Part shown: positions 2,667 to 42,011 of the stretch, piece by piece
How the letters are laid out: the number at the start of each line of letters is the position of its first letter
Position numbering within the stretch: the stretch's first letter is position 1
From: an uncultured Planctomycetia bacterium
GTDB lineage: Bacteria > Omnitrophota > Gorgyraeia > S143-82
Direction: 5' to 3'
Assembly: GCA_964469495.1 (NCBI GenBank)
Contig: CAYXYY010000030.1
Span: 76,262 to 133,102 of the forward strand
DNA length: 56,841 bases
Position numbers and translations under genes: made by a program
Notes under the pieces: model-generated
Databases searched by the model: none
The model's input: only the letters and a program-made list of their open reading frames with translations
What the model was told of the DNA's origin: nothing

Positions 2667-2676
2667 AAATTCCTCC

Positions 2677-4668
2677 TTATTGCGCCCTTACCTGCAAACC
2701 ATCGGTCTTTGACAAGGCGCTTAAAACCGATTGAAATCCATCGCCAGCCTCCTCCGCAGTCAGGGTCCTGTCTTTTGCCCTGAAAAACAGCCTAAAGGCA
2801 TAGCTCGTTTTGTCCTTTGTCTTGCTATATACATCCACCAGTTCTATCTTTTCAAGATATTCACCGGCGTTCTTTTCTATAATGTCAACTATCTGCTGAT
2901 AAGACGCCTTCGCTATATCTACCCACATACTCACGTCGAATTCAACTGCGGGAAATAAATTGGCCGGCGCATATTTTCGGCTGACTTGTTTTTTCCACTG
3001 TTCAAATACCGAATCAAGTTTTAGGCACAAAAACGCGGCCTCGGCCTTGATTCCAAAGGCCTTTTTCATCGCATCATCTGCAAAACCTATTGCTCCAAAC
3101 CCGGAAATTTCTATCTTGCCGTCCGGCCTGTTTTTGCCTATCTCCACAGGCATTTTTAGAATATCTTGAGACAAGACATCTATGGCAAACCTGATCTTTT
3201 TATAGGCATCTTGTTTCTTCTTTCCCGTAGCGCATAGGCCTAACCTTAACTTTTCCGAATCCTTAAAATCAGGAGATAACGATTGGGATATCTCGTATAA
3301 AAACACATCGCTATGCCCTCTCTTGATATTCCTGCCGGCCGACGATAACAAGCCCGGCACAGGCCCAAGCCTCAAAAATCTATATTCGTTGCTAATGGTA
3401 TTTTCTACCTCTAATAGGGGTTTTTCCTGATAAAATGCCTGTTTTTCCTTTTCCGAAATCAAGGAAAACGTAATTGCCTCATACGCGCCTACGGCCTGCA
3501 TAGCGCTATGAACCTGCGATAGAAATTCCGTGTGCTTGTCAGAAATCCCACGGATGCTGTTTGCGCCTATCTTTGGAAACTCAACAGGCACGTTATCATA
3601 CCCGTATATACGCAAGACCTCCTCTATGATGTCCTCTTTTATGGCTATATCCAAACGGAAACTAGGCACATCTATCACAAAAGACCCGTTTTGCGACTTT
3701 ACGGCAAAACCCAGGCCTTGCAATATCTGCGATACCTCTTTTTCAGGGATATCTATCGCGCTTATGTCCCGTATATCCTTTCCCGTCAATTCAACAACGC
3801 GTTTTTCTATGGCAATCTCCCCGCAAGACACCCTGCCTTTTATCTTTCCGCCTGCAAGTTTACTCATCAAATACGCCGCGTACAATCCCGCCATATCCAC
3901 TGCTCTTGGATCAATACCCCTCTCAAACCTATAAGATGCGTCTGTATTAACCGCCAAACGCTGGCGCGTCTTGCGAATGTCTATTCTGGGAAACCTTGCG
4001 CTTTCCAAGACAACATTTACAGTATCCTCTCCGACTTCAGAGTTTGCCCCGCCGATAACACCGGCTATGGCAATCGCCTTTTTCTCATCCGCTATCACGA
4101 TATCCGATGAGGCCAGCATCCTTTCCTCTCCGTCCAACGAGACTATCTTCTCGCCATCACCAGCGCGCCTGACAACAATCTTTCGTCCGGATATCTTTTC
4201 CCTGTCAAAGGCATGAAGCGGCTGTCCGAACAAAAGCATACAATAATTCGTGATATCCACGATGTTGTTAATAGGCCTAAGCCCGCTTGATTGAAGCCTC
4301 TCAACAAGCCAGTCCGGAGACGGGCCAACCTTAATGCCTTCTATCTCTATTGCAAGATAATATTCCGCGCAGGAATCCTCTATATCAACGGATATATCGC
4401 AGCCACTTTCTATTTGCGGAGCGTCTTTTATCAATGCCTTTACATCAGGCGCGGGACGGCGTTCTATTGCGCATATCTCCCGGGCAACGCCCAACATGCT
4501 CAGCCAATCACTACGGTTGCTCGTAATCTCAGCCTCAAAGATAACGTCTGCGGCAGATTGTTCAATAGATACCACTTCCAATCCGGCAAACGTCAATGCC
4601 CGAGCCATTTGCTCATAAGGCATCTTTGAACCTGACAACTCTTTTAGCCAATTATACGATATATTCAT
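2677..4668 (-). CDS. pheT: Phenylalanine-tRNA ligase beta subunit, short form
   Basis: MNISYNWLKE start, ITSNRSDWLSMLGVARE, RPINNIVDITNY, DASYRFERG, C-terminal FDX-ACB domain; directly downstream of pheS. Confidence 0.95.
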   Translation of the reverse strand: MNISYNWLKELSGSKMPYEQMARALTFAGLEVVSIEQSAADVIFEAEITSNRSDWLSMLGVAREICAIERRPAPDVKALIKDAPQIESGCDISVDIEDSCAEYYLAIEIEGIKVGPSPDWLVERLQSSGLRPINNIVDITNYCMLLFGQPLHAFDREKISGRKIVVRRAGDGEKIVSLDGEERMLASSDIVIADEKKAIAIAGVIGGANSEVGEDTVNVVLESARFPRIDIRKTRQRLAVNTDASYRFERGIDPRAVDMAGLYAAYLMSKLAGGKIKGRVSCGEIAIEKRVVELTGKDIRDISAIDIPEKEVSQILQGLGFAVKSQNGSFVIDVPSFRLDIAIKEDIIEEVLRIYGYDNVPVEFPKIGANSIRGISDKHTEFLSQVHSAMQAVGAYEAITFSLISEKEKQAFYQEKPLLEVENTISNEYRFLRLGPVPGLLSSAGRNIKRGHSDVFLYEISQSLSPDFKDSEKLRLGLCATGKKKQDAYKKIRFAIDVLSQDILKMPVEIGKNRPDGKIEISGFGAIGFADDAMKKAFGIKAEAAFLCLKLDSVFEQWKKQVSRKYAPANLFPAVEFDVSMWVDIAKASYQQIVDIIEKNAGEYLEKIELVDVYSKTKDKTSYAFRLFFRAKDRTLTAEEAGDGFQSVLSALSKTDGLQVRAQ

Positions 4669-4677
4669 AATCCCTTA

Positions 4678-5718
4678 TCAAAACTGTTTTAGAAAATCCA
4701 TTTCATTGTTATAAAACAATCTGATATCCGGTATGCCATATTTAAGCATACACAGACGTTCCACTCCCATACCAAAGGCAAAACCCTTCTTGCCCTGATA
4801 ATCCTTGCCTAACGCATTCAAGACATTGGGATGAATCATACCGCATCCCAAGACCTCAATCCACCCGCTCTGTTTACAAGCCGAGCACCCCGCGCCATCA
4901 CACAAAAGGCAAGAGATGTCCACTTCAGCAGACGGTTCTGTAAACGGAAAATAATGCGGCCTAAACCTTATGTCCACCTCTTTTTCAAAGAATCTCCTGC
5001 TAAATTCCAGCAACACGCCTTTTAATTGGCCGAAGCGAACGTCATCATCCACATAAAACCCCTCAACCTGATGAAACATAAATGAATGAGATGCATCAAC
5101 AGCATCCGGCCTATACACCCTGCCCGGGACAATCGCCGCCAACGGCGGGGCAAATTCTTTCATAATCCTGACCTGCATAGGGGAGGTATGACTCCTCAAC
5201 AAATACCTGCCAAGCTCGTCATTCGGAAATTCCGTCTTTATATAAAAGGTATCAAAGTCATCTCTTGAAGGATGCGATATATCTATGTTAAGGCCTGAAA
5301 AATTATTGTATTCCCTTTCTATCTCCGGGCCTGTGAAAAGGGCAAAACCCATTGACGTGAAAATGCTTACAATCCTATTTTGGACTTGGGAAAGGATATG
5401 AGCCCTGCCCGGGGCAGGCCTTATCTCAGACGGCAAAGACAAGTCAAAGTCAATAGATTCTCCGGACGGAGAAGATAATCGCGCGTTTTTTATAAAAGCT
5501 TCTATCTTGGCCTTTACTTCGTTTAACTGCCTGCCAAGCTGGCGTTTCTCATCATCCGGCAGGCCTTTCATTAAAGAGTAAAGGGGCTTTAAAAGCCCCT
5601 TTTTGCCTAAAAACCTAATACGTATGGATTCAACATCCTTTGCAGAAAGGGAACTCTGCGCCTTTGTAGCGCGTTCAAATTCCTCAATTACCTTTGAGAG
5701 TTCCTCTTTCCAAGACAT
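4678..5718 (-). CDS. pheS: Phenylalanine-tRNA ligase alpha subunit
   Basis: HPSRDDFDTFY, LRSHTSPMQ, FHQVEG, FPFTEPSAEVD, GFAFGMGVERL. Confidence 0.97.
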   Translation of the reverse strand: MSWKEELSKVIEEFERATKAQSSLSAKDVESIRIRFLGKKGLLKPLYSLMKGLPDDEKRQLGRQLNEVKAKIEAFIKNARLSSPSGESIDFDLSLPSEIRPAPGRAHILSQVQNRIVSIFTSMGFALFTGPEIEREYNNFSGLNIDISHPSRDDFDTFYIKTEFPNDELGRYLLRSHTSPMQVRIMKEFAPPLAAIVPGRVYRPDAVDASHSFMFHQVEGFYVDDDVRFGQLKGVLLEFSRRFFEKEVDIRFRPHYFPFTEPSAEVDISCLLCDGAGCSACKQSGWIEVLGCGMIHPNVLNALGKDYQGKKGFAFGMGVERLCMLKYGIPDIRLFYNNEMDFLKQF

Positions 5719-5720
5719 TA

Positions 5721-6068
5721 TTATTCTTGATTTGCCAATTCAACCAGCTGGGCAAAATCGTCAGGATGGCGCACTGCAAGGTCAGCCAGAATCTTTCTGT
5801 CTATACCTATATTCTTCTTTTTTAACGCACCCAAAAACTTGCTATAAGAAGTCCCCAATGCCTTACAAGCGGCGCTAATACGCACAATCCAAAGCCCGCG
5901 CATAGTCCTCTTCTTGGCGCGCCTATCCCTGTATGCATAGGCAAGCGCACGCATCACCGTTTCATGCACCCTGCGGTAATGGCGTTTTCTAGCCCCCCAA
6001 TAACCTTTGGCCATTTTGCGCCATTTATTATGCCGCGCCCTTTTTGTAACAGCTGTCTTTATGCGCAT
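5721..6068 (-). CDS. rplT: 50S ribosomal protein L20
   Basis: AKGYWGAR, AYAYRDRRAKKRTMRGLWIVRISAA, IDRKILADLA; SD AAGGAG upstream. Confidence 0.97.
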   Translation of the reverse strand: MRIKTAVTKRARHNKWRKMAKGYWGARKRHYRRVHETVMRALAYAYRDRRAKKRTMRGLWIVRISAACKALGTSYSKFLGALKKKNIGIDRKILADLAVRHPDDFAQLVELANQE

Positions 6069-6124
6069 AAAAACTCCTTTACCTTACGTCTCAAATACAC
6101 ACAACTTCCCATTTAAAGAGTGTG

Positions 6125-6153
6125 ATTTTAACACAAAGAACAGGCTTATGCAA
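6125..6153 (-). promoter_or_regulatory. Sigma70-type promoter of the rplT-pheS-pheT-aspS operon
   Basis: Minus strand TTGCAT-17 nt-TAAAAT with TG extended -10, about 55 nt before the rplT ATG. Confidence 0.6.
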
Positions 6154-6186
6154 ATACAATTTTCCCATACAAATCAGGAAAAATAT

Positions 6187-6215
6187 TTGACATATAATAG
6201 GATATATGTTTTAAT
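6187..6215 (+). promoter_or_regulatory. Sigma70-type promoter of the gspC-like gene
   Basis: TTGACA (6187-6192)-17 nt-TTTAAT (6210-6215). Confidence 0.55.
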
Positions 6216-6224: not shown

Positions 6225-6869
6225 ATGAAGGGGCGTATTTTATTAATTATAACTGCCATTTGTGGTTTGGTTATCAGCGTCTTTGCCCAAGAGCCAAACA
6301 CACAACAATTTAGATTTATTGTTTTGGGAACTCTCGTGGGGAATAACGGCTCACAAAGTTCTTTTGCTGTGCTTTACGACATAGAAAACAACAAACAAAA
6401 CATCTTTTCTCAAGGCTCAGAGATTAACAGCTGGACAATAAAATCTATTTCCCGCGGCCGTGTGGTATTTGAGAAAAACGGAGAAAGAAAGGTCGTTGAG
6501 CTTCCGCCTGAACCAGAAAAAAAGGCCTTTATTCCTATAAATAAAAAGGAACAGGTCATAAACCGTATTGCATTTTCTAAAAACTATCCGGATCTTAATT
6601 CCCTGTTGCAGGCTGTTTCTGTTTCTCCTTATATAGAAAATGGCCAATTAATCGGATTACAAGTGGATTCTATTGATAGAAAACTTAGCAAGATGAGCTG
6701 GATACGCGAAGGCGATATTATAATGGAGGTAAACAACAAAAAGATAGACAGCCTTTCTAAATTTCTGGAACTATACGAGGTCATTAAGAACGAACCGAAG
6801 GTAATTGTTAAAATCAAACGAGGGCCCAAAACCTTGTCTTATACGTATCACATGAATTGGGATATGTGA
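6225..6869 (+). CDS. Type II secretion system protein C-like (TM anchor, HR domain, C-terminal PDZ)
   Basis: N-terminal hydrophobic helix, VLGTLVG..FAVL..IFSQGSEI..IKSISRGRVVFEKNGER (HR-like), PDZ-like IREGDIIMEVNNKKI..VKIKRG. Confidence 0.72.
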   Translation: MKGRILLIITAICGLVISVFAQEPNTQQFRFIVLGTLVGNNGSQSSFAVLYDIENNKQNIFSQGSEINSWTIKSISRGRVVFEKNGERKVVELPPEPEKKAFIPINKKEQVINRIAFSKNYPDLNSLLQAVSVSPYIENGQLIGLQVDSIDRKLSKMSWIREGDIIMEVNNKKIDSLSKFLELYEVIKNEPKVIVKIKRGPKTLSYTYHMNWDM

Positions 6870-18143: not shown

Positions 18144-19895
18144 TTATAACAAAGCTTTACTTCTAAGAAAGGCTGTTATACCTGAGGATTGGCTTCTATC
18201 TGCCTCGGAAGCTATGGGTTTGTGTAAAAAGGCCTTTAAATCACCTGAGGTTTTCAGAAGACACACTTTCCCTAATGAAACCTGCTGTAAAAGGAATCTT
18301 TTAAACTTCGGCCTGTTTGGCAGAAAAGGCGCCCAGACCCCGACATCAAGCCCCGCGTTAATTGCCTCTGATATCATGGAAATGCTGTCAGGTGTGATAA
18401 TGGCCTTTCTAGAGACATAAAAAAAGGCATCTAATATACCTTCTGGATTATATCTATTGGCAATAACCTTGTATTGAAAATCGCGCTTGTCTATCAATAA
18501 TTCAACATCGGCAGGGGTCCTGCGCGACGTTGTAATTAATACCCGTTTGTTGCTATTCGAAAGCGTATTTAACATATCTTCTATCCCGGCAAAGTGGATA
18601 TCATATCCTTTTGTATTGCCGCCTATTAGCACGCAAACATTGTCTTCGTCTTTTTTTAATTTAAACTCCTTCGCAAATTGGCCTGCCTTATCCTCATCAA
18701 AGAAACACAAAGCCCCGTCTATTAAATAACAATTCCTTCCCCTGCCTCTATCGTGCCGCATGGCAAGCACTGCATCTATAAATGGCGAAAACATACCCGG
18801 GCTCATTACGACACACGATTTTGCCTGATTATACCTTTTCAAGAATACATTTAATCCCGACAAAGATGACCCTGTTGATACGACCAAATCCGCATTTTGC
18901 CTTAAAATCGGCTCTAACCCGTTTCTTTTCAGAATATACTCACCAAATCTTATCGGCAAAAATCCAATTACCTTTATCGTCCAGCTAATATTTCTCAAGA
19001 CAATCTGATTTATTTGAATGTCCTTATCCGGATAGGCGCGCTTTATATATTCTAATAATGCAAAAGACTGCTTCTCATGCCCCTTTTTCCCATCGCTTAA
19101 GACTAATACATCCCTTTGATTAGAATACTTCCAACGCTTATAACTCCACAGATATTGTTCTGGATAGCTGTTTACCTCTTCCTCTAGAACCTCGTTTAAT
19201 TTCTTGGCGATCTCTTTTTCTCCTTCCTCATAGGAAATCTTATCGTAAACATGCAGACGATATTTTCCCCTTTCCCTAATACAAAAACACGGCACTAAAT
19301 CGGTCTTTGTCTTTTTACAGAGCCACAACAGCCCCTTGGGAATCGGAGCAGGCCTTGAAAAAAACTGGGCAAAGACTCCATCTCTGCCTGTATGGTCAAA
19401 GACAACGGCTGCGGTTAACCCTCTTTGCATTTCTCGAACAAGGGCCCTTAAACCGGCAGGATCACCTGCCTTGTATATTTCTGCACCAGTCATAGCGCGT
19501 TGTTGGTAAATAAAGAACAACACAGGGCTTTTTCTCTCATTGACTATTACTCCATATCTTTTGAAAAACCTTCCTGCGGATAGATTTGCAGCCTCCCAAT
19601 TACCTATATGGGCAGTGGCAATAATATAGTTCTGATTCACATCCATTGAAGAATTCGCAGCATCTTGAATAAGGGCAGATATATGACTTGACTCTATACC
19701 CAATAGTACGTCCCAAAACACCGCACAAAAATGCCGCACAGCACTAAAAATTATTTTGTTGTAAAATCCATATTCCTTGTCCGGAAAGGCAATCCTCAAG
19801 TTTTTATACAAAACCTTTCTGTTGACGAACGGGAAAACCAGCAATACGGAAAGAAACGCGGCAATCTTCTTGATTATAGATCTCGATATAGACAT
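18144..19895 (-). CDS. Fusion of a lipid A late acyltransferase (LpxL/HtrB family) and an ELM1/GtrOC1-family putative glycosyltransferase
   Basis: N-half AHIGNWE, PEQYLWSYKRWK; C-half VLVLSDGKKGHEKQS, TSRRTP, TPDSISMISEA. Start moved to ATG 19895 because the longer ORF runs into tRNA-Leu. Confidence 0.85.
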   Translation of the reverse strand: MSISRSIIKKIAAFLSVLLVFPFVNRKVLYKNLRIAFPDKEYGFYNKIIFSAVRHFCAVFWDVLLGIESSHISALIQDAANSSMDVNQNYIIATAHIGNWEAANLSAGRFFKRYGVIVNERKSPVLFFIYQQRAMTGAEIYKAGDPAGLRALVREMQRGLTAAVVFDHTGRDGVFAQFFSRPAPIPKGLLWLCKKTKTDLVPCFCIRERGKYRLHVYDKISYEEGEKEIAKKLNEVLEEEVNSYPEQYLWSYKRWKYSNQRDVLVLSDGKKGHEKQSFALLEYIKRAYPDKDIQINQIVLRNISWTIKVIGFLPIRFGEYILKRNGLEPILRQNADLVVSTGSSLSGLNVFLKRYNQAKSCVVMSPGMFSPFIDAVLAMRHDRGRGRNCYLIDGALCFFDEDKAGQFAKEFKLKKDEDNVCVLIGGNTKGYDIHFAGIEDMLNTLSNSNKRVLITTSRRTPADVELLIDKRDFQYKVIANRYNPEGILDAFFYVSRKAIITPDSISMISEAINAGLDVGVWAPFLPNRPKFKRFLLQQVSLGKVCLLKTSGDLKAFLHKPIASEADRSQSSGITAFLRSKALL

Positions 19896-19912: not shown

Positions 19913-19996
19913 TGCCGAAGGTGGGACTCGAACCCACACGAGGTTACCCCCATCGGTTTTTGAGACCGACGCGTCTGCCAGTTCCGCCACTTCGGC
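19913..19996 (-). tRNA. tRNA-Leu (anticodon CAA)
   Basis: GCCGAAG acceptor stem, D-loop GGCGGAACTGGCAGACGC, anticodon arm TCGGT-CTCAAAA-ACCGA, long variable arm, GGTTCGAGTCC; CCA not encoded. Confidence 0.96.
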
Positions 19997-20032: not shown

Positions 20033-21355
20033 TCAACAGTGTTTACTCTTTCGCTCAAAATCATCGAGAAAAGGATATGCATCAGATTCATAATGAACCA
20101 CTTGCGTTGAAACACCGCAAAATTGCGCAATAACCGCAGCAACCTGTCCATCGTCTATGTAACAGTCTTTTCTAGTCTGGATGTGCACCTTTATCCCATC
20201 GCCTTCGCGTTCGACAAAAAACCTTCCGGTGATGACCTGCGCAAGGCCTGTATTATTAAATAAGGCCTCTCTCACCCTTGCTATTGAAACCCTTTTGTTT
20301 ACATTGACCTCTATTTGGCAATCCCTTCCCCAAAAGAACACAAACGGCAGTCTATTGCCTGAGAACTCGTGATGAATGCCAAAATCCTTTAGTGTATTTT
20401 CCACTTCCTTCGCAGAAAAGACAACACATTTATCACCTATGGCGTATCTTATTAACGGCAGCGGACGTTTTCCCATAGGGGTTATAACCAATTCATTCCC
20501 GATAGACTCTAAAAAATATAAATTGGGATAATACTGGAATACCATGGGAAAGAAATCCAAGTCATCCCCTATTGAAAAGGCCTTTAACAATCCAGGTATT
20601 TTCCCCATAGCATCCCTTATAAACCTGCTAAAAGGGGTTTCATGCATAATATTTAGCCCCAATTCCGCTGTTCCAAACGAGGAAAACATATCATTTACAG
20701 ACAATCGTTCAAGAAAATATCTCCTAAGGCCCTCGGAAAGGAATTCTCCTCCGACAATCAGTTTCAGATCCAATTGCCTTGTATATTCTCCAACGGCATC
20801 GTCTTCCAAAACAGACTTAACAAATAACGCATCTCCCAGCACGATAACCTGATGAAATAATTGCGCAGCGTTGCGCAAGGCCTCTATCGCGCAGTCCTTT
20901 CTTATACCCACGGAAAGCGTACTGCAAATTTGGCTATCCACGTTAATTCCCATAGGCAACAGATTCAAAATCAACGTCTTTTTTCCCCTTACTGAAAAAT
21001 ACCTATCCAAAATCCAGTCAATCAGCACAGGGGCCTTTGCCATTTCCTTTTTATCAAACACGCCAAAGGAAAACACGCCACTTGTCCCGGAGCTTGGCAT
21101 AAAAACAAAGGACTTATATCCGGGGACTATCCATTGACGAAAATTGGGAAACACGTCTGTTTTACGCAAAATAGGTATTGCAAAAAAATCTTTATGCTGC
21201 AAGATTCTGTTAATAGAGATGCCTTTGGATTCCAAAAACCTCCGATAACCCGACGAATTATTATAGGCGTATGTAAACCTGCGAAATAATGATTCCTCCG
21301 TCGGAGATTTAGATAAATTCGACTCCAATATCTGTTCAATGGATTTTCCAAACAT
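20033..21355 (-). CDS. Adenylate-forming enzyme of the phenylacetate-CoA ligase (PaaK)/CoF-synthetase-like family
   Basis: PSSGTSG (A3 loop), IVGGE, SSFGTAELG, LPLIRYAIGD, FWGR. Confidence 0.82.
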   Translation of the reverse strand: MFGKSIEQILESNLSKSPTEESLFRRFTYAYNNSSGYRRFLESKGISINRILQHKDFFAIPILRKTDVFPNFRQWIVPGYKSFVFMPSSGTSGVFSFGVFDKKEMAKAPVLIDWILDRYFSVRGKKTLILNLLPMGINVDSQICSTLSVGIRKDCAIEALRNAAQLFHQVIVLGDALFVKSVLEDDAVGEYTRQLDLKLIVGGEFLSEGLRRYFLERLSVNDMFSSFGTAELGLNIMHETPFSRFIRDAMGKIPGLLKAFSIGDDLDFFPMVFQYYPNLYFLESIGNELVITPMGKRPLPLIRYAIGDKCVVFSAKEVENTLKDFGIHHEFSGNRLPFVFFWGRDCQIEVNVNKRVSIARVREALFNNTGLAQVITGRFFVEREGDGIKVHIQTRKDCYIDDGQVAAVIAQFCGVSTQVVHYESDAYPFLDDFERKSKHC

Positions 21356-22059
21356 CAGATCTTCGGCCTTAAATTCTCATCCAAATCTTGTGTAAAATAA
21401 TCAAAATAATGCGGATGGTAAAACGCCATCTCCTTTTCAACATCGTCTAATTTTATTCTATAAGGATGCACGATACCCATACACTGCACTTCATCTCCTA
21501 TTCGTTCAAAGACAATATGCGTTTTTGACAGCAGTTTCCAAAGACTTGGTTCCATCAAAACCAACCACCACTTAATATGGTTCTTTTTGCAATACGTATA
21601 TATGGCCCTGTACAGACCAAAAACCATCGGCCTTATTCTGCGAAAAGGCGCGCGCGTATTGTCAACGTAGGCAGCAGCGTCATAATAAGCGCCATCTCCT
21701 TTCCTGCGACGAAAGGTTTTGCTAATAACAAGTCTTGATATCTCCGCTACATCGGAGGCTTCAACCCCCCTCATCTTATCTTTTACAAATGGCGCGTATT
21801 TAAATATGGGCAGGCCCTTTTCTTTATTTAGGACCAATCGGGTATAACCTACCAGTTCATTCTCTATATATATCCCAAAGTGCACACTCTGCTCGTCGTA
21901 TTCGTCCAGTTCACGGCCATCAGGATAATCTTTTTCTGCAATAAATCCCCTTTCAAGGCAATAAACACGAAACCGCAATTGCGCAGCATCATTGATTACC
22001 TCTTCCCACGACAATTGCTTAAAGACAAACTCTGTATTGGCTATTTTTTCACGTCTCAT
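21355..22059 (-). CDS. GNAT acyltransferase of the LuxI/FeeM (N-acyl amino acid synthase; exosortase-associated acyltransferase-like) fold
   Basis: LRFRVYCLERGF, RELDEYDEQSVH, GYTRLV, AEISRLVISKTFRRRKGDG. ATG 22059 preferred (AGGGG upstream); the ORF is open to TTG 22119. Confidence 0.82.
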   Translation of the reverse strand: MRREKIANTEFVFKQLSWEEVINDAAQLRFRVYCLERGFIAEKDYPDGRELDEYDEQSVHFGIYIENELVGYTRLVLNKEKGLPIFKYAPFVKDKMRGVEASDVAEISRLVISKTFRRRKGDGAYYDAAAYVDNTRAPFRRIRPMVFGLYRAIYTYCKKNHIKWWLVLMEPSLWKLLSKTHIVFERIGDEVQCMGIVHPYRIKLDDVEKEMAFYHPHYFDYFTQDLDENLRPKI

Positions 22060-22115
22060 GTTATAAGCGCCCCTATCCATAAAATAATGTATCACACATA
22101 GCTTGTTTGGGCAAA

Positions 22116-22955
22116 TCAATTAAGAAAATTTCTTAAGGCGGCAAAAAAAGAATCCTTATCCTCAAAAAACACATCATTGTGCAATCCGTGTTTCAATATA
22201 ACCATGTCTTTCATTGAAGAAGGACAATGCTCAAATAAATCCTGCCCCATAGACAGAGGTATTAGTTCATCTTCCTTACTATATACAAATAGGACAGGAA
22301 TCATTATATTTTTAATCTTGTGTATCGAATCGAACTTATATTTAAGTAATAATCCAACCGGTAAAAAAGGATAAAGTCTTTTGGAGATATCACCAAGAGA
22401 CGTAAAAGAGGCATCCATTATCAATTTCCCTTTATTAATCGCCATAGACCAAACCAAATCTATGGCCACAGCGCCTCCCAGAGATCTGCCATAGATAACT
22501 ATTTGCTCAGGATTGATATTCAGCGCGTTAATCATATAATCATAGGCAGACCTGGCATCTTGATACAATCCTTCTTCTGTCGGGATTCCAGTACTCTTGC
22601 CGTATCCACGATAGTCAATCACAAAAATACTAAGGCCAAAGTCATAAAGGGCATTTAAAAGATCTATCCTATCGCTCAAATTCCCTGCATTGCCGTGCAG
22701 AAGAAGCACAGTCATCTGCGCATTTGGGTTTTCCAAGTACCAGAAACAGATATCTTCTCCGCCTGATCGCAAAAATCCCTCTTTAAAATCCAGGCCCATA
22801 TCCCTTGGACAGGGCGAATTTGGCTGCCATTTACCCGGCTGAAAAAGCAATTCATCCTGCCGAAAAAACAACCATAAACACACAAAGATGTAAACCAGTA
22901 GCGCAATAATTAAAATAACTGCTAACAGCTCAATTAAAAGCTTTGCCATGGACAA
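22116..22955 (-). CDS. Membrane-anchored alpha/beta hydrolase (ABHD13/17-, Bem46-like)
   Basis: N-terminal TM, LLHGNAGN, DYRGYGKSTG, nucleophile YGRSLGG, D in KEDELIP, H in HGLHND. Confidence 0.88.
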   Translation of the reverse strand: MSMAKLLIELLAVILIIALLVYIFVCLWLFFRQDELLFQPGKWQPNSPCPRDMGLDFKEGFLRSGGEDICFWYLENPNAQMTVLLLHGNAGNLSDRIDLLNALYDFGLSIFVIDYRGYGKSTGIPTEEGLYQDARSAYDYMINALNINPEQIVIYGRSLGGAVAIDLVWSMAINKGKLIMDASFTSLGDISKRLYPFLPVGLLLKYKFDSIHKIKNIMIPVLFVYSKEDELIPLSMGQDLFEHCPSSMKDMVILKHGLHNDVFFEDKDSFFAALRNFLN

Positions 22956-24030
22956 GTTCTTTCATTAATCCCTTAACAGATAGAATTTTATCCACTCTAT
23001 AAGCATTAGAACCAACTGTAAACAAGGGTTTTTCATCAGAGCCGTCAAAATACGAAGTAGAGGTAATCAAGCCATTACATATACAAAAGTAATCTTTGTT
23101 GTTATCCATTGCAGGACAATAGTTTTTAAACTTAACATAACCCAAATTACACAAACAAGGCCGTTTCTGTTGCAATGCATCCTGATACATAGGCGACTGT
23201 TTAATAAGCCTAAATAACATTCCACACGGCGAACCAGGCCTATAGGCAACGATTATATCCTCCTTGGTGCAATTAACAACTGCTTGTTTAAACTCATCCG
23301 TCGCACTGCTTTCTTCCGTAGCCAGAAAACGCGTTCCCATTTGAACACCCGAAGCGCCCATTTTTAATATCCTTACGATGTCTTCGTGTGTATATATACC
23401 TCCTGCGGCTATAACAGGTATATTCCCATAATTTTTGGTTGTTTCTAAAACATCTGTCAACAAATTTTCCAGTTTATTCTCTTCCTTTTCTATGTCTTTA
23501 AGGTCTTTCCATCCCAAATGCCCTCCAGCTAAAGGGCCTTCAACAATAACGGCATCCGGCAAGAACCCGAATCTCTTCCACCTCTTGCAAATAATGTCCA
23601 ATGCCCTTCCAGAAGAGACAATAGGGATCAAAGCCGTCTTGGCCTTTGATTTATAAGACGAGACTATTTCTGGCAAATGGACAGGCAGGCCAGCGCCTGA
23701 AATAATGGCATCAACCTTGGCATCCAGCGCGCCTTTCACCGCATCTGCATAATCGCGAAACAAGGCAACCATTATATTAATGCCAATAACACCGCCATTC
23801 GCTAATGCCTTTGCATCCTCTATTTCGCGCCTAGTAGCCTGCTGAGTATCAAGCTGTTTACCAACACGCCGGCTGGTTAAGATGTCCAACGCAACACTGG
23901 ATAAAACACCCATCCCGCCTTCTTTGGCAACAGCGCCAGCCAAAGGCGCCATAGACACGCCAGCGCCCATACCGCCCTGTATAATCGGCACACGCAATAC
24001 AAAATCTTTTATTTTTAACGAAGGAAGCAT
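22930..24030 (-). CDS. FMN-dependent oxidoreductase of the nitronate monooxygenase/FabK/FabX family with Cys-rich C-terminus
   Basis: PIIQGGMG, VIVEGPLAGGHLG, PVIAAGGI, GVQMGTRF, C-terminal SPCG..CLC..YCP..FCICNGL..GSNAYRVDKILSV. Confidence 0.88.
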   Translation of the reverse strand: MLPSLKIKDFVLRVPIIQGGMGAGVSMAPLAGAVAKEGGMGVLSSVALDILTSRRVGKQLDTQQATRREIEDAKALANGGVIGINIMVALFRDYADAVKGALDAKVDAIISGAGLPVHLPEIVSSYKSKAKTALIPIVSSGRALDIICKRWKRFGFLPDAVIVEGPLAGGHLGWKDLKDIEKEENKLENLLTDVLETTKNYGNIPVIAAGGIYTHEDIVRILKMGASGVQMGTRFLATEESSATDEFKQAVVNCTKEDIIVAYRPGSPCGMLFRLIKQSPMYQDALQQKRPCLCNLGYVKFKNYCPAMDNNKDYFCICNGLITSTSYFDGSDEKPLFTVGSNAYRVDKILSVKGLMKELVHGKAFN

Positions 24031-24057
24031 ATATCCGTCCCCTTAAAGTTAGACAAT

Positions 24058-24086
24058 AGTATACCTTAAAAGACCCAAACTCACAA
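24058..24086 (-). promoter_or_regulatory. Sigma70-type promoter of the four-gene acyl-metabolism operon
   Basis: Minus strand TTGTGA-17 nt-TATACT, then SD AAGGGGA before the ATG at 24030. Confidence 0.6.
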
Positions 24087-24130: not shown

Positions 24131-25372
24131 CTATAAGGCCTTGCCAATAAGATACAATCTGCCATTTTTATCAAGATCTGCTACTTTAACTGAACAAAAC
24201 TCTCCTATGGCTTTCCTGCAGCCACTGACCTTGATTTTTACATAATACGGGTTTAAACCGTAAACAACTTCAGAAGACCTTTCTTCAATAATGATATCCT
24301 GTTCTGTTTCGATAAAGGCAGCCATAAACTCTTTGGCCCATTCCTTCGACCGTTTAATCAGGATATTTGCGCGATTCTTCTTAACAAGAGCGGCAACTCC
24401 CAAATCTTCGTTCTGCTGCTCAGCGGCAGTTCTAGGCCTGGGGCTAAAAGGGAATACATGCAAACGCATAGGCCGTATACATCCCAAAAACTCCAGCGTT
24501 TTATTGAACTCTTCTTCCGTCTCCCCCGGGAAACCAACCATCACATCCGTACTGATAGCAATGTCAGGCAGCAGATTTCTGCACATGGAGATTATTCCTT
24601 CGTATTTTTCTTTTGTATACGGCCTGTTCATGCGAGCCAAAACAGTATTACTGCCACTTTGTATAGGCACGTGCAAATGCCGGCATGCCGCAGCACATTC
24701 CTTCATAGCCCTTAATAATTCCGGCGTAATATCCCTTGCCTCTATGGAACTCAACCTTATTCTTGGAAAACCTATCTCCTGCCCAATATATATTAACTCG
24801 TGGAGAAATGGGCATCTCCCCAATGATATTCCAGTAAAAACAATCTCCTTATAACCGCTATTGAATAAGGCAGCCAACTCCCTTTTTATCTCTCCTTTGT
24901 CTCTAATACGAATGTCTGCTCCTCTTAAGTACGGGATATAACAATATGAACACATCATATCGCACCCATCTTGAACCTTGACAAATGCCCTGTGATGTCC
25001 TTTTAGAAAACTAATAAAAGGAACAGATGAAGGCGCGAGTTCCAAAAACCGCGCAACAATGTTAAATATAGAATCTTTTTCCCTCTGCTCCACAAGATAA
25101 TCAAAATCCCAATCTTTTGGCGCGTCTTTAAAAGCAGAAGCGCTGCATCCAGTAAGAATCAGAAATCTGCAATTCTCTCGCATCGCGCGCAGGGCCTTGC
25201 CTGCTTTTTTATAAGATCTGTTTGTCACAGCGCACCCGTTTACAATGCACACATCGGCAAAGCCCTCATCTATCTCCTTAAGCCCCATAGAGATAATGCC
25301 CTCTCTGATTAATTGTCCCTCGTATTGATTGACTTTACACCCAAATGTCTTGATTATAAACGTATATGCCAT
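24131..25372 (-). CDS. mtaB: tRNA methylthiotransferase, MtaB type (radical SAM)
   Basis: KTFGCKVNQYE, VNGCAVT, VKVQDGCDMMCSYCYIP, DVMVGFPGETEEEF, HVFPFSPRPRT. Confidence 0.9.
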   Translation of the reverse strand: MAYTFIIKTFGCKVNQYEGQLIREGIISMGLKEIDEGFADVCIVNGCAVTNRSYKKAGKALRAMRENCRFLILTGCSASAFKDAPKDWDFDYLVEQREKDSIFNIVARFLELAPSSVPFISFLKGHHRAFVKVQDGCDMMCSYCYIPYLRGADIRIRDKGEIKRELAALFNSGYKEIVFTGISLGRCPFLHELIYIGQEIGFPRIRLSSIEARDITPELLRAMKECAAACRHLHVPIQSGSNTVLARMNRPYTKEKYEGIISMCRNLLPDIAISTDVMVGFPGETEEEFNKTLEFLGCIRPMRLHVFPFSPRPRTAAEQQNEDLGVAALVKKNRANILIKRSKEWAKEFMAAFIETEQDIIIEERSSEVVYGLNPYYVKIKVSGCRKAIGEFCSVKVADLDKNGRLYLIGKAL

Positions 25373-27122: not shown

Positions 27123-30100
27123 CTATCTTTCCACGCGAAGAGGCCCTTTATGCAATCTCACTTTGCCATCTTTTATAGAGAGATAGCATCTATGCTCTGC
27201 CAATTTATTCCCTCTATCATCTGATATCTGCACAACGACAGGCAATTTGGTGAACAAAACTGCCAAAAGCTGTTTTTTGCTCATTCCTTCAAAATAATCC
27301 AGATCTCCACTAAAGGCCTTTGACATTGCTGCGCATAATTCTTTCTTCTTCTTTCTTTTATACTCCATCACGTTGAGAGGCATTGTGACCTTCACGTCAA
27401 CTATCGCGGCATTCCCTGTCAACTCATTGGCAAGATCCCAAAACTCTTTTTTTAACCGAAGAGAAGAAGGTAAAACCCCTCCTCTTTCTCGTAAAAGCTC
27501 TTCTAAAAAGACGTCTCCCATATTAAACCTCACCCTGTATTCAACAGCGAGAGGAGCAACACATACTATTTTCTCAAGAGAACGCTTAAAAGCAAAAGGA
27601 AGGAGGTCTGCTTTTACAAACAATCCTTCGCTTTTTAATTTCGAATTCATCTCTTCTATTTCTTCAGTGGTTAAGTCTACTGCGTCCGGGATTGCGATAG
27701 AGTACAGCAGAGTGCCTTCCTTTAGAGAAAGATACTCAATCACAAAATCGTCCATCTCTATGCCTATATTTTTCAAATGCATAGACAAATCCGCCATACG
27801 GGCAAGGAAACTTACGTGCCCTTCATCCTCTGCCACAAAAGAATAATAAGTCGAGGCCGGAACAAACGCAGTATATTTATCTGCCTTAATAATGCGAGAC
27901 GTTATTTCCGGATAAGATGAGTCCAAAAACTCACAATTTTCCATCAAGGAAGCCCTCTTAAACAAGGCCTTTACCACGTCCTTATAGACCAAACGGCTTT
28001 GTCCCGACAACACATCCCTTTCTGCCACAGGCATGTCAAATGGCAAAATCTTCTGTTTATACGGGAAATACCTTTTGCCTGCGCTTGAAAAGCGAACCTG
28101 TTTAAATTCTCCATTAAACATCTTATTAGATCCTGAATTTAAAGGCATATCTTTTGGTTTTACGAGCGTGTTCTCATTCGCAATAACAAACATGGCCTTA
28201 TGAAACGAAAATGCGTCTAATAATACAGATGTTATCGCATCCGGATAAAACACCTGTGAATTAGAGGAGATAAAGGGGATTTTGATATCTTGCATCATCC
28301 AGTAGACAGATATGCCGCTTCTAAAACCTAAACATTTTATCAAAAGCGGAAGCCATTTAACAGCCCTTCCTCCGGGAACAAAAATACCGCCACGCCTTAT
28401 GGATTTCAGCATTTCTGAATTCAGCTCTCCTGCCGGAATAATCCGTATGTTTTTCAATGCCAAGATCCTCTGAACCGCAGACCATTGAGGCGCATCAGAC
28501 AAAACGATTCCGCCCTGTGGCATCTTACGCCATAAATTAACAAGCCTTTTCGCCTGATAAATGGCCTCCGCTTCTATCTCCAGATCATTAAAATACCTCT
28601 GTTCCATCGTTCTAAGATAATCTATATCCTTATACGCCAAGTCAAAATCAAAATCGCTATTTAAAGCAACGATTTGTTTCATATCAGGCCGCACAGGCCG
28701 TTTGTTGGGCAAACGCATCATTATCAAACCATCTGATATATCGTCTAATCGTTCATTAAGAACAGATTTGGACCTTAAGAATCTGGCCATATCAGTAGAG
28801 ATAGAATTTGCCAATGATACGACATAGTAAACAGAATCTTTGTTTGATTCAAACAATCGAGAGTCTATCCCCCGCAACCCAACGACAATATGGAGACCCT
28901 TATGGGACATGAAAGCATCAACACCTTCTGTCAAAACAAGCCTATTTTTTTCAATAGAACCCCTTATATCCATCTCAGGAATAACAGCATCGCTTACAGA
29001 GATCAGGTGCTGTAAAATATCTTCGTCTACGTAAAATAATCCGTCGGAAATAAGCGCAATAGAGACCTTTTTGTCAAGCTCCTTACACAAAATAGCGCCT
29101 GCCATAAGTGCGGCAGCCGATCCAAACGATCCTTTTGCAAGAATAGAAATCTCTTCTGATTCCTTGATATCCTTTGCCATATTAAATCTGTTATCCTGAA
29201 AAAGGGTTCTTCTTGATTCTATTGATGCAACATATAACGGCACGTCTTTAAAATTCGGTATGGCCGCTAACAGGGGCTTGGCAGAACCTTTTATCAGCCA
29301 GTCAATGCTTGAATCGACAGGAAAGTCTTTTATTGCTTTGATTTTTACCAAAAAAGACAAAACCTGCGACGCAATATCCAAACGAGTTTTAGAAAGTTCC
29401 ACCATTTCGACAGGCGCAAGGATACGTAAAACCTGCGCATAACTGCGTTGAAAAATGGATAATAACTCCTTATCCTCTCCAAGATCCGTATAGGCTTCTA
29501 AGAAATTCCCGCCCAAAGAAAAGAAATACTGCCACTGGCAATATAAAATCAACATCTCCTCTATGGCCCTGTCCTTTGGCATGCGGCCATAGGCCAGATA
29601 AAATGCCTCAAAAAGAGAGCCGAATTTATCTTCTTGGGCACCTAATCGTTTCTTAAATTCCCTTAAAATAGGCTTAACCCTCTCATCTCTTGAAATAGCG
29701 GCATGCAAACCTTCATGGAATCTGACCATTGCCTCTATCTGTCTGCCTGATATAGGTTCTTGCATGTTAAAATAAAGGGAAAACGCATCAGCCAAACTAT
29801 TCCACATCTCCCTGACGGCATCTCTATTAAGCGGCGCTATCTCAAAAAACAATCTCATTTTCCTCGCCTTAATATCCCACATCCCCGGCCCATAACTCTT
29901 AATAAAATCCCAAACTGATTTGGGAATATTCACTCTCTCGCGTAAAGATGCAATCCATTTATCCCTAACAACGATCGGCATACAAAATGCCTTTGCCCGC
30001 AAACTAAAATTCGTCAGGTAATCAACCGTTTTGACATACGTCTTACCCGGGGCAAGGGACAACAATGGCAGGACAGGCATATAAACAGAATTCGTATGGC

Positions 30101-30854
30101 GATAATTTATTATCGGTTTTATAACACTGAAGTCCGGCACGTTTCTGCCTAAGGGATATACGAACCTGACATCAACATGGCCTTTCAATTCCTTTTCCAA
30201 TTTCTCAAAATGATAACCGCCGATAACAGCAACATAAAGTCCGGGGTAATCCTGAATCTCATTGAGAATGGTTTTCGCAAAGGCAAGAGTCCTCTCGTCA
30301 GCGCTGTCATAAAAATCAACCACAGGTTTTATCCCGGGCAGATAATCTAAATTATCTATAGATCGCAACGCCTTCCAGCGTTGATACGAAAGTCTCAACC
30401 GCATTGCATCAAATAAAATTTTATCCAGCAATACCGTTGAGGAAAACATTCCGAATAAGGCATTATAAGAGGCCGATTCTTTTACAAGAGAAATATACGC
30501 ACCCAAAGCCTTAAGGTAAACGCCCGGATTTTCTATGCCTATGGCTTTGACATGATTTTTGTATGCAAAAAACTCTGCGCCTGATAAAAGTCCCAAATCC
30601 AAAAGGCGCTTGGCTTGTTTCTCTGTCCTTAAAAAAGAAAAATCACTCTTTCCAAAACCGCCTTCCAAAAATATACCATCTATTTCTTTGGCCTTATTGA
30701 TAGCATCTAATCTCTCATATATGGCCTTCTGCACGTAAGGATTATTATGGATATCAGCTATTATGATTAATTGCGTTTTTGCCGCAAAAGCAGCAGAACA
30801 CAGAAAAAACACGAAGGCAATAACATAATAAAAAATAAAATTTCTACGTCTCAT
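27123..30854 (-). CDS. Large exported multidomain protein (1243 aa) with TraB/ChaN/EreA-like N-domain and HExxH motif; function unknown
   Basis: Sec signal MRRRNFIFYYVIAFVFFLCSAAFA; ADIH36, LE64G, GIE108, GGYH215; HEGLH at aa 380-384; uninterrupted 3.7-kb ORF. Confidence 0.85.
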   Translation of the reverse strand: MRRRNFIFYYVIAFVFFLCSAAFAAKTQLIIIADIHNNPYVQKAIYERLDAINKAKEIDGIFLEGGFGKSDFSFLRTEKQAKRLLDLGLLSGAEFFAYKNHVKAIGIENPGVYLKALGAYISLVKESASYNALFGMFSSTVLLDKILFDAMRLRLSYQRWKALRSIDNLDYLPGIKPVVDFYDSADERTLAFAKTILNEIQDYPGLYVAVIGGYHFEKLEKELKGHVDVRFVYPLGRNVPDFSVIKPIINYRHTNSVYMPVLPLLSLAPGKTYVKTVDYLTNFSLRAKAFCMPIVVRDKWIASLRERVNIPKSVWDFIKSYGPGMWDIKARKMRLFFEIAPLNRDAVREMWNSLADAFSLYFNMQEPISGRQIEAMVRFHEGLHAAISRDERVKPILREFKKRLGAQEDKFGSLFEAFYLAYGRMPKDRAIEEMLILYCQWQYFFSLGGNFLEAYTDLGEDKELLSIFQRSYAQVLRILAPVEMVELSKTRLDIASQVLSFLVKIKAIKDFPVDSSIDWLIKGSAKPLLAAIPNFKDVPLYVASIESRRTLFQDNRFNMAKDIKESEEISILAKGSFGSAAALMAGAILCKELDKKVSIALISDGLFYVDEDILQHLISVSDAVIPEMDIRGSIEKNRLVLTEGVDAFMSHKGLHIVVGLRGIDSRLFESNKDSVYYVVSLANSISTDMARFLRSKSVLNERLDDISDGLIMMRLPNKRPVRPDMKQIVALNSDFDFDLAYKDIDYLRTMEQRYFNDLEIEAEAIYQAKRLVNLWRKMPQGGIVLSDAPQWSAVQRILALKNIRIIPAGELNSEMLKSIRRGGIFVPGGRAVKWLPLLIKCLGFRSGISVYWMMQDIKIPFISSNSQVFYPDAITSVLLDAFSFHKAMFVIANENTLVKPKDMPLNSGSNKMFNGEFKQVRFSSAGKRYFPYKQKILPFDMPVAERDVLSGQSRLVYKDVVKALFKRASLMENCEFLDSSYPEITSRIIKADKYTAFVPASTYYSFVAEDEGHVSFLARMADLSMHLKNIGIEMDDFVIEYLSLKEGTLLYSIAIPDAVDLTTEEIEEMNSKLKSEGLFVKADLLPFAFKRSLEKIVCVAPLAVEYRVRFNMGDVFLEELLRERGGVLPSSLRLKKEFWDLANELTGNAAIVDVKVTMPLNVMEYKRKKKKELCAAMSKAFSGDLDYFEGMSKKQLLAVLFTKLPVVVQISDDRGNKLAEHRCYLSIKDGKVRLHKGPLRVER

Positions 30855-34342: not shown

Positions 34343-34903
34343 TCAATACTTGTAAGTAAATCCTAAGACATAACCTTCGGTATCTATCCCATCATTTGGC
34401 TTTTGAATACCTGCATTTGAAAAATGCCTAACGCGAAATTCCAAATTAATAGACTTTTTATCATCCAAGACCCAGCGCAGTCCCAAAGCGCCTGTGCTGA
34501 AAAAATTCCACTGCGTTGCCTGTTCTTTCGTATGCTGTGTCGTATATCCGGGTCCGGTGCCTATCTTGAAATATGGAATAAACCTTTCAGTAACAGGGAA
34601 GCCCATCATAAACATAAAACTCACTCCGAACTCAACATTATTATCCGGCGCAATAACAGGATTTGCAAAAAACTCTATCTGAAATTCCAAAATTCCTGCT
34701 TCTAATTGTTCTGCCTGCGGACGGATCTCATACCCCAATGCGATAAACAGCGGTGTAATCTGATAACTGTCTCCCCTGTTTTTCAAATTGTCTTCCTCCA
34801 TAAAACCCGACGCAACTGTTATAGAAGAAGGAGACGGCAGGGCAAAACACTGCCCGAAAAAGAGGAATGAAGAAAACAAAATCAATGGAAACCTTTTTAA
34901 CAC
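34343..34903 (-). CDS. Acyloxyacyl hydrolase / lipid A 3-O-deacylase (PagL family), outer-membrane beta-barrel
   Basis: Signal peptide, alternating beta strands, catalytic RHFSNAGI..PNDGID, terminal aromatic residue (YKY). Confidence 0.85.
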   Translation of the reverse strand: MLKRFPLILFSSFLFFGQCFALPSPSSITVASGFMEEDNLKNRGDSYQITPLFIALGYEIRPQAEQLEAGILEFQIEFFANPVIAPDNNVEFGVSFMFMMGFPVTERFIPYFKIGTGPGYTTQHTKEQATQWNFFSTGALGLRWVLDDKKSINLEFRVRHFSNAGIQKPNDGIDTEGYVLGFTYKY

Positions 34904-40333: not shown

Positions 40334-41029
40334 TTACACCCTGTGTTCTATCTGCTCTAATAGAGAGTCAAAGATATTATCATAGTCTTTAACATCATCC
40401 ATAAACGGCATTAACCCAAGATTAGACGTCTTTCCTATTCTGCATATGGTTTCTATGTTGTCCTTTCGCACATTGGCAGGGCAGTCAAAGGCCTCATTAA
40501 ACACCAATCCTATCAGTTTAATCCTCCTACGGTGCAATGCCTCTATAGTCAAAAGGCTGTGGTTAATAGCCCCCACAATATTACGGACAACCAAAACAAC
40601 GGGGAGTTTAAATTCTTTCACCAAATCTATCAACAATAACTTCTTTGAAAACGGCACCAGCGCGCCGCCCACTCCTTCCACGATTAACCTCTCAGACGCA
40701 GAAGAGGCAAAGTCAAATGCCTGTTTTATAATCGCTTTAGATATCCGCCTATTCGTCAACCCGGCGACAAAATGGGGAGAGGCCGGCATAACAAAACTAT
40801 AAGGGTTCATATCTGTTCTTTTCAACAAGATATCCTCGCCTATGCCTGCAACGTCTAATGCAAAAGAAACATCCTCTGAAAAACCAAATCTGTCGCCAGT
40901 AGATACCCACTTCTGCGGAAAGGCAATAAACCCGTTGCGCACATAGGCGCGCAATAGGCCTGCCGTTAAAATAGTCTTCCCGACTCCTGTATCTGTGCCA
41001 AGGATGATGAATGCGTTTTTATTGCTCAT
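40334..41029 (-). CDS. bioD: Dethiobiotin synthase
   Basis: LGTDTGVGKT, PASPH, IVEGVGG, GAINHSLLT. Confidence 0.93.
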   Translation of the reverse strand: MSNKNAFIILGTDTGVGKTILTAGLLRAYVRNGFIAFPQKWVSTGDRFGFSEDVSFALDVAGIGEDILLKRTDMNPYSFVMPASPHFVAGLTNRRISKAIIKQAFDFASSASERLIVEGVGGALVPFSKKLLLIDLVKEFKLPVVLVVRNIVGAINHSLLTIEALHRRRIKLIGLVFNEAFDCPANVRKDNIETICRIGKTSNLGLMPFMDDVKDYDNIFDSLLEQIEHRV

Positions 41030-41814: not shown

Positions 41815-41877
41815 ATTACCTCCTTTGATTGTCTCTATATTATACAAGATCCCCCTATTATTTTTTAACAAAAAACT

Positions 41878-41905
41878 TTGATTTTGGAGATATTCATAGT
41901 AAACT
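41878..41905 (+). promoter_or_regulatory. Promoter for tRNA-Arg and mrdA
   Basis: TTGATT-16 nt-TAAACT about 20 nt before the tRNA. Confidence 0.45.
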
Positions 41906-41926
41906 TATAAATTCTAATGGACGCGT

Positions 41927-42000
41927 GCGCCCATAGCTCAATTGGATAGAGCTCTGGCCTACGGAGCCAGGTGTTGGGGGTTCGAATCCCTCTGGGCGCG
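41927..42000 (+). tRNA. tRNA-Arg (anticodon ACG)
   Basis: GCGCCCA/TGGGCGC acceptor stem, TAGCTCAATTGGATAGAGC D-arm, CTGGC-CTACGGA-GCCAG anticodon arm, GGTTCGAATCC. Confidence 0.97.
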
Positions 42001-42011
42001 CTTTTAATATA

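Follow-up and report, generated by a model that had tools for sequence, protein, structure and literature searches.

The DNA analysed here is a stretch of 56,841 nucleotides (nt; 56.8 kb) from an uncultured Omnitrophota bacterium, called the window below, and all coordinates are window positions. It carries four genes, G1 to G4, arranged in tandem on the minus strand, with mtaB on one side and a tRNA-Leu(CAA) gene on the other. On balance, this block probably consists of two independent two-gene modules that stand side by side in this Omnitrophota lineage. G3 and G4, which encode a predicted N-acyl amino acid synthase and a predicted adenylating enzyme with the PaaK fold, form a conserved unit, and the pair of a predicted FabX-type enzyme (G1) and a predicted hydrolase (G2) forms a separate one. 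An earlier sequence-only reading had cast the four genes as successive steps of one pathway; that interpretation is partly supported, but the single four-step pathway is not, as the modules are separable. The block should not be annotated as a single biosynthetic cluster. [quoted passage not shown]

Distribution of the synthase–G4 pair

A scan of species-representative genomes with a 10-sequence alignment of G4 retrieved 70 loci, which come from Omnitrophota, Planctomycetota, Desulfobacterota, Alpha-, Beta- and Gammaproteobacteria, Verrucomicrobiota, Acidobacteriota and other groups. Open reading frames (ORFs) were called and the neighbours within 8 kb clustered over 66 loci; the G4 ORF was called in 61. 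G3 and G4 were found together in at least six phyla. A synthase of the TIGR03694 or FeeM type lay within 8 kb of G4 in 50 of the 61 loci, and in 28 of the 32 loci with both flanks of at least 5 kb. The synthase immediately adjoined G4 in 30 loci, and the synthase-then-G4 order of the window was seen in 16. In one protein (P0155), a G4-like domain is naturally fused to a FeeM domain. Cultured carriers of a synthase together with G4 include Undibacterium pigrum, Thiococcus pfennigii and Desulfobacter curvatus; in U. pigrum DSM 19792 G4 comes immediately after the synthase gene, and in D. curvatus the two share one cluster.

Among the G4 loci, FabX together with a G2-type hydrolase was present only in the window and in the contig of a close relative (L001). 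A more distant Omnitrophota genome (L003/L012; 50% identity to G3 and 34% to G4) encodes a PEP-CTERM protein, immediately followed by the synthase and G4, with neither FabX nor the hydrolase. The sequence-only reading had named a lack of joint conservation of the four genes as grounds for its refutation; the synteny check found only G3 and G4 travelling together across phyla, which largely refutes it.

The neighbours of G4 were dominated by surface-protein and exporter genes. Over the 66 loci, the most frequent families were PepA-like PEP-CTERM proteins (21 loci), LolD-like proteins (20), a 399-amino-acid family without a Pfam match (18), LolC/E-type permeases (16) and LolA-like PF17131 proteins (16), followed by ThiF (8), sigma-54 activators (8) and Amidohydro_2 (7); a priming sugar transferase and DUF3485/EpsI also recurred. 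A PEP-CTERM-type protein of any kind, either from the PepA-like family or with a motif match, was encoded within 8 kb in 31 of the 61 loci. In the layout common to Omnitrophota and Planctomycetota, two or three synthase genes diverge from an operon of LolA-like, LolC/E, LolD and 399-amino-acid genes, in some cases ThiF and Amidohydro_2, and G4, and the genes for a PEP-CTERM protein, a sugar transferase and EpsI lie just past this operon. Most homologous G3–G4 loci elsewhere carry the genes described for the TIGR03694 family, namely those for PEP-CTERM proteins, sigma-54 regulators, EpsI and a sugar transferase. Published work has tied these synthases to PEP-CTERM/exosortase systems since 2011, and calling the pathway undescribed, as the sequence-only reading did, was an overstatement. 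No dedicated acyl carrier protein (ACP) gene was recurrent in the clustered neighbourhoods of the 66 loci.

Three gammaproteobacterial TIGR03694 loci were inspected, and all three have a ThiF-type adenylase gene beside the synthase and no G4. They have the same Lol-like exporter and PrsK/PrsR-type regulators, with an exosortase in one. Co-oriented ThiF and Amidohydro_2 genes followed by a G4-family gene were observed in Desulfobacter curvatus (L010), in L042, L057, L065 and L073, and in others. An apparent natural fusion of a FeeM-like domain with a ThiF domain is represented in NCBIfam by PRK14852 (989 amino acids, 'hypothetical protein'). Given these ThiF and G4 loci and the PRK14852 fusion, two different ATP-dependent carboxylate activators appear to be tied to these synthases.

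The acyltransferase G3

To judge by its sequence, G3 (22059..21355, minus strand; 234 amino acids from the likely ATG) is a bona fide member of TIGR03694, the acyltransferases that accompany PEP-CTERM/exosortase systems. It scored 160.6 bits against a curated cutoff of 111.95, with residues 33–246 aligned to positions 10–237 of the 241 in the profile; since this match begins near the residue encoded by ATG 22059, that codon was taken as the start. Acetyltransf_5 and FeeM were its Pfam matches. The AlphaFold2 (AF2) model of G3 had a mean predicted local distance difference test score (pLDDT) of 89, and its top folds in Foldseek were LasI (1ro5), FeeM (2g0b), RpaI and BjaI, so the LuxI/FeeM-fold acyltransferase named in the sequence-only reading is borne out. 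The family-invariant residues R29, E50, D52, D55, R74, E106, S108 and R109 are all kept. Invariant residues and fold are thus common to G3 and the TIGR03694 synthases (Craig, Cherry & Brady 2011 J Bacteriol 193:5707; NmNAT of Neisseria meningitidis, PMC9762135).

The TIGR03694 family yields long-chain N-acyl amides or amino acids (Craig et al. 2011, as cited in PMC9762135, with the findings summarised there and in PMC7293339 and PMC11072679). A Neisseria enzyme with a TIGR03694 annotation made N-acyl-ornithine and N-acyl-lysine in E. coli on its own, without a ligase (PMC9762135), and metagenomic N-acyl amino acid synthases generally draw on the ACP-activated fatty acids of E. coli (PMC11511702). 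From these two precedents, it is probable that G3 can obtain its acyl donor without a ligase of its own. By analogy with the known members of the family, an N-acyl lipid is its likely product. The sequence-only reading had proposed an N-acyl signal or lipid; the N-acyl lipid or amide is reasonable given TIGR03694 membership, but an aryl-homoserine lactone signal is unsupported.

Two groups of characterised enzymes offer a comparison. FeeM, an N-acyl-tyrosine synthase, resembles G3 in fold (Foldseek, 4e-9), in the Pfam FeeM match and in its product class of N-acyl amino acids. However, G3 belongs to a different subfamily, TIGR03694, and whereas FeeM has a dedicated ACP, FeeL, no ACP gene lies beside G3 or recurs in related loci. 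RpaI and BjaI, which make aryl- and isovaleryl-homoserine lactones (HSLs) from coenzyme A (CoA) thioesters, share sequence and fold similarity with G3 over the N-terminal half, and they were the best sequence matches of the G3 family profile in the PDB (BjaI, 1.5e-11; RpaI, 2.3e-10). Unlike them, G3 had no match to Autoind_synth (PF00765) in Pfam at E ≤ 0.01, although some distant homologues of G3 have a faint one. No LuxR-type receptor was evident among the window neighbours or the annotated recurrent families of the 66 loci, as judged from annotation, no receptor-specific model having been run. The conserved neighbours are instead exporters and surface proteins, and characterised TIGR03694 members give N-acyl amino acids, unlike the HSL-making RpaI and BjaI. 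The analogy with aryl-HSL synthesis drawn in the sequence-only reading finds no support here, with no Autoind_synth match in G3 and no receptor family recurrent among the annotated neighbours.

The adenylating enzyme G4

G4 (21355..20033, minus strand; 440 amino acids) is predicted by its modelled structure to be a PaaK-fold adenylate-forming enzyme of an unnamed family. It had no Pfam match and only fragmentary NCBIfam matches, none near its cutoff; on the phenylacetate-CoA ligase equivalog model TIGR02155 it scored 18.4 bits against a cutoff of 646.3. The profile of its family, built from 69 homologues, matched PaaK (1.7e-20, in three collinear segments) and LuxE (2.5e-9) in the PDB. The AF2 model (pLDDT 93.8) retrieved NatL2, AjiA1, BT_0428 and PaaK1 as top Foldseek matches, with E-values of about 1e-17 to 1e-18 and template modelling (TM) scores of 0.65–0.71. 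G4 contains the P-loop SSGTSG (88), GGE (202), RYAIGD (303) and K436, of which SSGTSG, RYAIGD and K436 are invariant or nearly so among the 69 homologues. The PaaK-type fold and these three motifs agree with the PaaK-like adenylating enzyme of the sequence-only reading.

The two-domain fold, the SSGxSG P-loop, the YxxGD motif and the C-terminal catalytic lysine, here K436, are held in common with the AMP ligases of the PaaK family (PaaK1 2y27, BT_0428 4r1l, NatL2 6siw, AjiA1 6wuq and LuxE 7xc6). Identity to these enzymes is only 12–16%, however, and G4 falls far below every equivalog cutoff; the P-loop of PaaK carries GKP, whereas that of G4 does not. The family is large (891 representative homologues at E ≤ 1e-3) and is annotated publicly as 'hypothetical protein' (NCBI) or 'phenylacetate-CoA ligase' (JGI). 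No description of a PaaK-like partner family was found in the searchable literature, outside which Craig et al. 2011 itself lies.

NatL2 is the top fold match of G4, and an Amidohydro_2 gene lies directly before G4 in about seven loci. An analogy with the benzoxazole-type NatL2/NatAM system was considered and dropped, as the Amidohydro_2 partner matched BB4693, LigW and ACMSD in the PDB and not NatAM.

The G4 family has at least one context other than pairing with the synthase. In three loci (L007–L009), the G4-family gene occurs without a synthase, and its flanks hold genes for a Glu/Leu/Phe/Val-type dehydrogenase, ThiF, a nitroreductase-like protein and a HisKA_7TM histidine kinase; one G4 homologue (P0122) carries a fused HisKA_7TM domain of its own. 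Two other family members (P0157 and P0162) have HINT/intein-type sequence at their N-termini, which suggests intein-containing or split versions of the enzyme.

The FabX-type enzyme and its hydrolase

G1 (24030..22930, minus strand; 366 amino acids, with AAGGGGA before the start) is, from its sequence, a homologue of the FabX-type acyl-ACP dehydrogenase/isomerase, a flavin mononucleotide (FMN) and [4Fe-4S] enzyme, and not of FabK. Its Pfam match was NMO (4.4e-49). In phmmer, residues 3–362 aligned with Helicobacter pylori FabX (7e1q/9lt5) at an E-value of 2e-67 and 231 bits, whereas FabK structures reached about 1e-19 and 74 bits at best, and the FabK equivalog model gave 101 bits against a cutoff of 453. 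Of the 'FabK/FabX-like' label given in the sequence-only reading, only the FabX half can be retained.

FabX of H. pylori uses H182 as its catalytic histidine and C300, C304, C308 and C320 as ligands of the [4Fe-4S] cluster (PMC8626469). G1 resembles this enzyme (7e1q) in its end-to-end alignment, in a GGH motif (169–171) aligned with the FabX GGH taken to hold the catalytic H182, and in a C-terminal subdomain rich in cysteines, which binds the cluster in FabX. The spacing of these cysteines differs: against C300/C304/C308/C320, G1 has C292, C294, C305, C316 and C318. C292 and C316 align with C300 and C320, and C294 and C305 fall two to three residues away from C304 and C308, out of register. 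Cluster binding by G1 is plausible. The two enzymes also differ in host, an uncultured Omnitrophota against H. pylori, and in that G1 is coupled to a membrane hydrolase, a kind of partner that PMC8626469 does not mention for H. pylori FabX.

G2 (22949..22116, minus strand; 277 amino acids from its first ATG, which is a likelier start than the listed TTG 22955) is, by its sequence features, a membrane-anchored alpha/beta serine hydrolase, as the sequence-only reading had it. It has an N-terminal hydrophobic helix, LLIELLAVILIIALLVYIFVCLWLFF, a GRSLG nucleophile elbow at 154 and Pfam matches to Hydrolase_4 (1.3e-16) and Abhydrolase_1. The top PDB match was the alpha/beta-hydrolase domain of a MARTX toxin (6imp, 7e-18).

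The FabX loci give the reverse view of the block. A metagenome scan with G1 returned 80 loci, and linkage to the hydrolase was counted over 77. A G2-type hydrolase follows FabX directly in four of them, the window, L001, L082 and L083, all with FabX identities of at least 72% and with an identical 20-nt overlap between the two genes; at FabX identities of 58% or less the hydrolase is gone. G3 and G4 are present in only two of the 77 loci. In L083 the FabX–hydrolase pair is followed by convergent genes for a HAD-phosphatase, CsrA and FliW, with neither G3 nor G4.

Layout of the block and its conservation in close relatives

ORF coordinates confirmed the layout described in the sequence-only reading: four tightly linked genes on one strand between mtaB and tRNA-Leu, an overlap of G1 with G2, which measures 20 nt, and the TGATG junction at which the stop codon of G3 overlaps the start of G4 by 1 nt. 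From the likely ATG of G3, G2 and G3 do not overlap but are separated by a 56-nt gap. The mtaB gene (24131–25372) lies 100 nt upstream of the block, and the tRNA-Leu(CAA) gene (19996..19913, minus strand; ARAGORN, and Rfam RF00005 with 59.3 bits), 36 nt beyond G4, is its downstream boundary. Terminator-like hairpins were not found within the G1–G2, G2–G3 or G3–G4 junctions, and the tRNA was the sole match in an Rfam scan of the block, with no other RNA element. Co-transcription of the four genes is possible.

The promoter-like sequence TTGTGA-17-TATACT, which the sequence-only reading had proposed to drive the four genes, is indeed present upstream of G1 (24086..24058, minus strand) and agrees with 9 of 12 consensus positions; its function is putative. 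The region contains 17 sites of this grade against 14.9 ± 3.2 in shuffled sequence, a number at chance level, and the promoter was rejected as evidence for an operon. Recent horizontal gain of G3 and G4 was likewise considered and rejected, as there is no compositional signal: the GC content of the four genes (0.385–0.428) is close to that of the window (0.421) and composition is uniform across the block.

All four genes occur together only in the window and in two contigs of close relatives (L001 and L002), where their order is unchanged. Compared with the window, G1 is 86% identical, G2 57%, G3 74% and G4 54%. In both contigs G4 is followed by NfeD and Band_7 genes, which hold the position of the tRNA in the window, and then by a gene that is also found downstream of the tRNA in the window and that encodes an LpxL-type lipid A secondary acyltransferase fused to an Elm1-like domain. 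The DNA flanking the block in L001 maps to scattered and distant parts of the window, with the four genes and LpxL–Elm1 staying linked; the block has therefore been kept together through rearrangement. The genes just upstream of FabX in L001 (1–5800) sit at three distant places in the window (40334–49239, 6225–6869); among their products are NadA, MnmA, NifU, an anti-sigma-type kinase, a hexapeptide transferase, a ParA-like protein, a BioD-like protein and a PDZ protein. Their scatter indicates frequent rearrangement between the genome of the window and L001.

Possible functions of the two modules

In the two-module explanation that we favour, the FabX-type enzyme, translationally coupled to the G2 hydrolase, would by its appearance belong to ordinary fatty-acid or membrane-lipid metabolism. 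G3 and G4 would be the minimal core of a widespread system made of a TIGR03694-type N-acyl amino acid synthase and a PaaK-fold adenylating partner. Going by the chemistry of characterised members, G3 would join a long acyl chain, most likely from acyl-ACP, to an amino acid and so give an N-acyl amino acid lipid. G4, of which the fold and motifs are observed, would use ATP to adenylate a carboxylate in the same pathway. By analogy with related loci, the product is probably a lipid of the envelope or matrix and not a diffusible quorum signal, since most G3–G4 loci hold Lol-like exporters, PepA-like PEP-CTERM proteins and exosortase genes.

A single four-gene pathway, as proposed in the sequence-only reading, would have the FabX-type enzyme tailor an acyl chain, the hydrolase release it, the PaaK-like enzyme re-activate it and the LuxI/FeeM-type enzyme condense it with an amine, giving a new N-acyl signal or lipid. 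This chemistry is coherent on paper, and the tight spacing on one strand without a terminator-like site in any junction, together with the identical gene order in L001 and L002, is in its favour. Its best argument is the cohesion of the block, which with LpxL–Elm1 stays intact while the flanks map to distant parts of the window. We nevertheless consider it unlikely. The full set is confined to the window and two close-relative contigs, in which G3 is still about 74% identical; no other G4 locus has FabX or the hydrolase, and G3–G4 stands alone in L003/L012. Conversely, just 2 of the 77 FabX loci have G3 or G4, and the L083 pair ends at convergent genes. G1 is 86% identical to its L001 orthologue against 54–74% for the other three genes, which fits a constrained housekeeping enzyme.

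The place of G4 within its module can be read in two directions. Our tentative preference, short of an even chance, is that G4 acts after G3 and may activate the N-acyl amino acid at its free alpha-carboxylate, so that it can be cyclised or ligated to another nucleophile. This order is favoured because G3 is expected to work without a ligase, because ThiF stands in place of G4 in some loci and because no ACP gene is recurrent. The carboxylates that ThiF-type enzymes activate are those of amino acids or peptides rather than fatty acids. The opposite order, in which G4 would turn an unusual carboxylic acid, whether aryl, branched or a free fatty acid, into an acyl donor for G3 (acyl-AMP or acyl-CoA), as in RpaI- and BjaI-like schemes, and the product would be an N-acyl amino acid or HSL-like, seems rather doubtful to us. 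A CoA ligase that feeds the synthase is chemically plausible: enzymes of the PaaK family are typically CoA ligases, the adenylation motifs are kept in G4, the top PDB matches of the G3 profile are both CoA-dependent, and the tight translational coupling and the G4–FeeM fusion are compatible with a hand-over in this direction. Yet the Neisseria enzyme does without a ligase and the metagenomic synthases take ACP-activated fatty acids; G3 lacks an Autoind_synth match, and no LuxR-type or other receptor family is recurrent among the annotated neighbours. The ATP-dependent neighbour in other TIGR03694 loci is of the ThiF type, and enzymes of that type do not supply activated fatty or aryl acids for acyl transfer; the conserved neighbours are lipid exporters and surface proteins rather than signalling genes.

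Several points weigh against the two-module explanation and the role for G4 that we prefer. Unlike the TIGR03694 systems described elsewhere, the window shows, over its 56.8 kb, neither a PEP-CTERM protein nor an exosortase, EpsI or Lol-like gene. ThiF and G4 occur together in about seven loci and are not simply interchangeable. The substrate assigned to G4 and its place in the pathway are inferences, and the similarity of the G3 profile to BjaI and RpaI would also fit an acyl-CoA donor supplied by G4. Given that the four genes stay linked to LpxL–Elm1 in the window, L001 and L002 despite rearranged flanks, and that no terminator separates G2 from G3, a lineage-specific functional link between the two modules is possible.

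A more speculative idea, which we regard as improbable, is that a lipid built and exported by the synthase, G4 and the Lol-like exporter that usually accompanies them may be what exosortase attaches PEP-CTERM proteins to. In this scheme an N-acyl amino acid would come from G3, G4 would activate its carboxylate and join it to a head group bearing an amine or a hydroxyl, and the exported lipid would serve as acceptor or anchor; the window would then hold a stripped-down core of the pathway. Parallel cases would be rhombosortase, for which attachment of the phosphatidylethanolamine type has been proposed, and archaeosortase, with which lipid attachment is seen.

Neighbouring genes

The neighbours of the block in the window are mtaB, priA and the LpxL–Elm1 fusion. 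The latter (18144–19895, minus strand; PF03279 and PF06258), downstream of the tRNA, probably starts at an ATG near 19895, the listed GTG 19937 overlapping the tRNA. It is 49% identical to its counterparts downstream of the block in L001 and L002 and is absent from all other G3–G4 loci. Its position invites comparison with the two-step synthesis of aminolipids by OlsB/GlsB and then OlsA/GlsA (PMC11631085): G3 shares the PF13444 N-acyltransferase family with that route, and an LpxL-type secondary acyltransferase downstream parallels the O-acyltransferase step. Unlike OlsA/GlsA, however, the acyltransferase here is fused to Elm1, is split from G4 by the tRNA (by NfeD and Band_7 in L001) and is found in no other G3–G4 locus. 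A PagL-like lipid A 3-O-deacylase is encoded at 34343–34903 (minus strand; PF09411, 7e-17), and together with LpxL–Elm1 it indicates that the organism has and remodels lipid A.

An ORF of 1243 amino acids (27123–30854, minus strand) is signal-like in sequence at its N-terminus and matches no Pfam family at E ≤ 0.001. At the left edge of the window (1–1201, minus strand) lies a partial MMPL/RND-type transporter gene. A 9-kb public contig to the left that overlaps the window (L167) encodes, at 1569–6193, the MMPL protein, then a LolA-like PF17131 protein and a 433-amino-acid protein without a Pfam match. MMPL and PF17131 genes flank the synthase–G4 cluster of Desulfobacter curvatus as well. Those at the left edge, about 19 kb from the block, could encode an exporter of the G3–G4 product.

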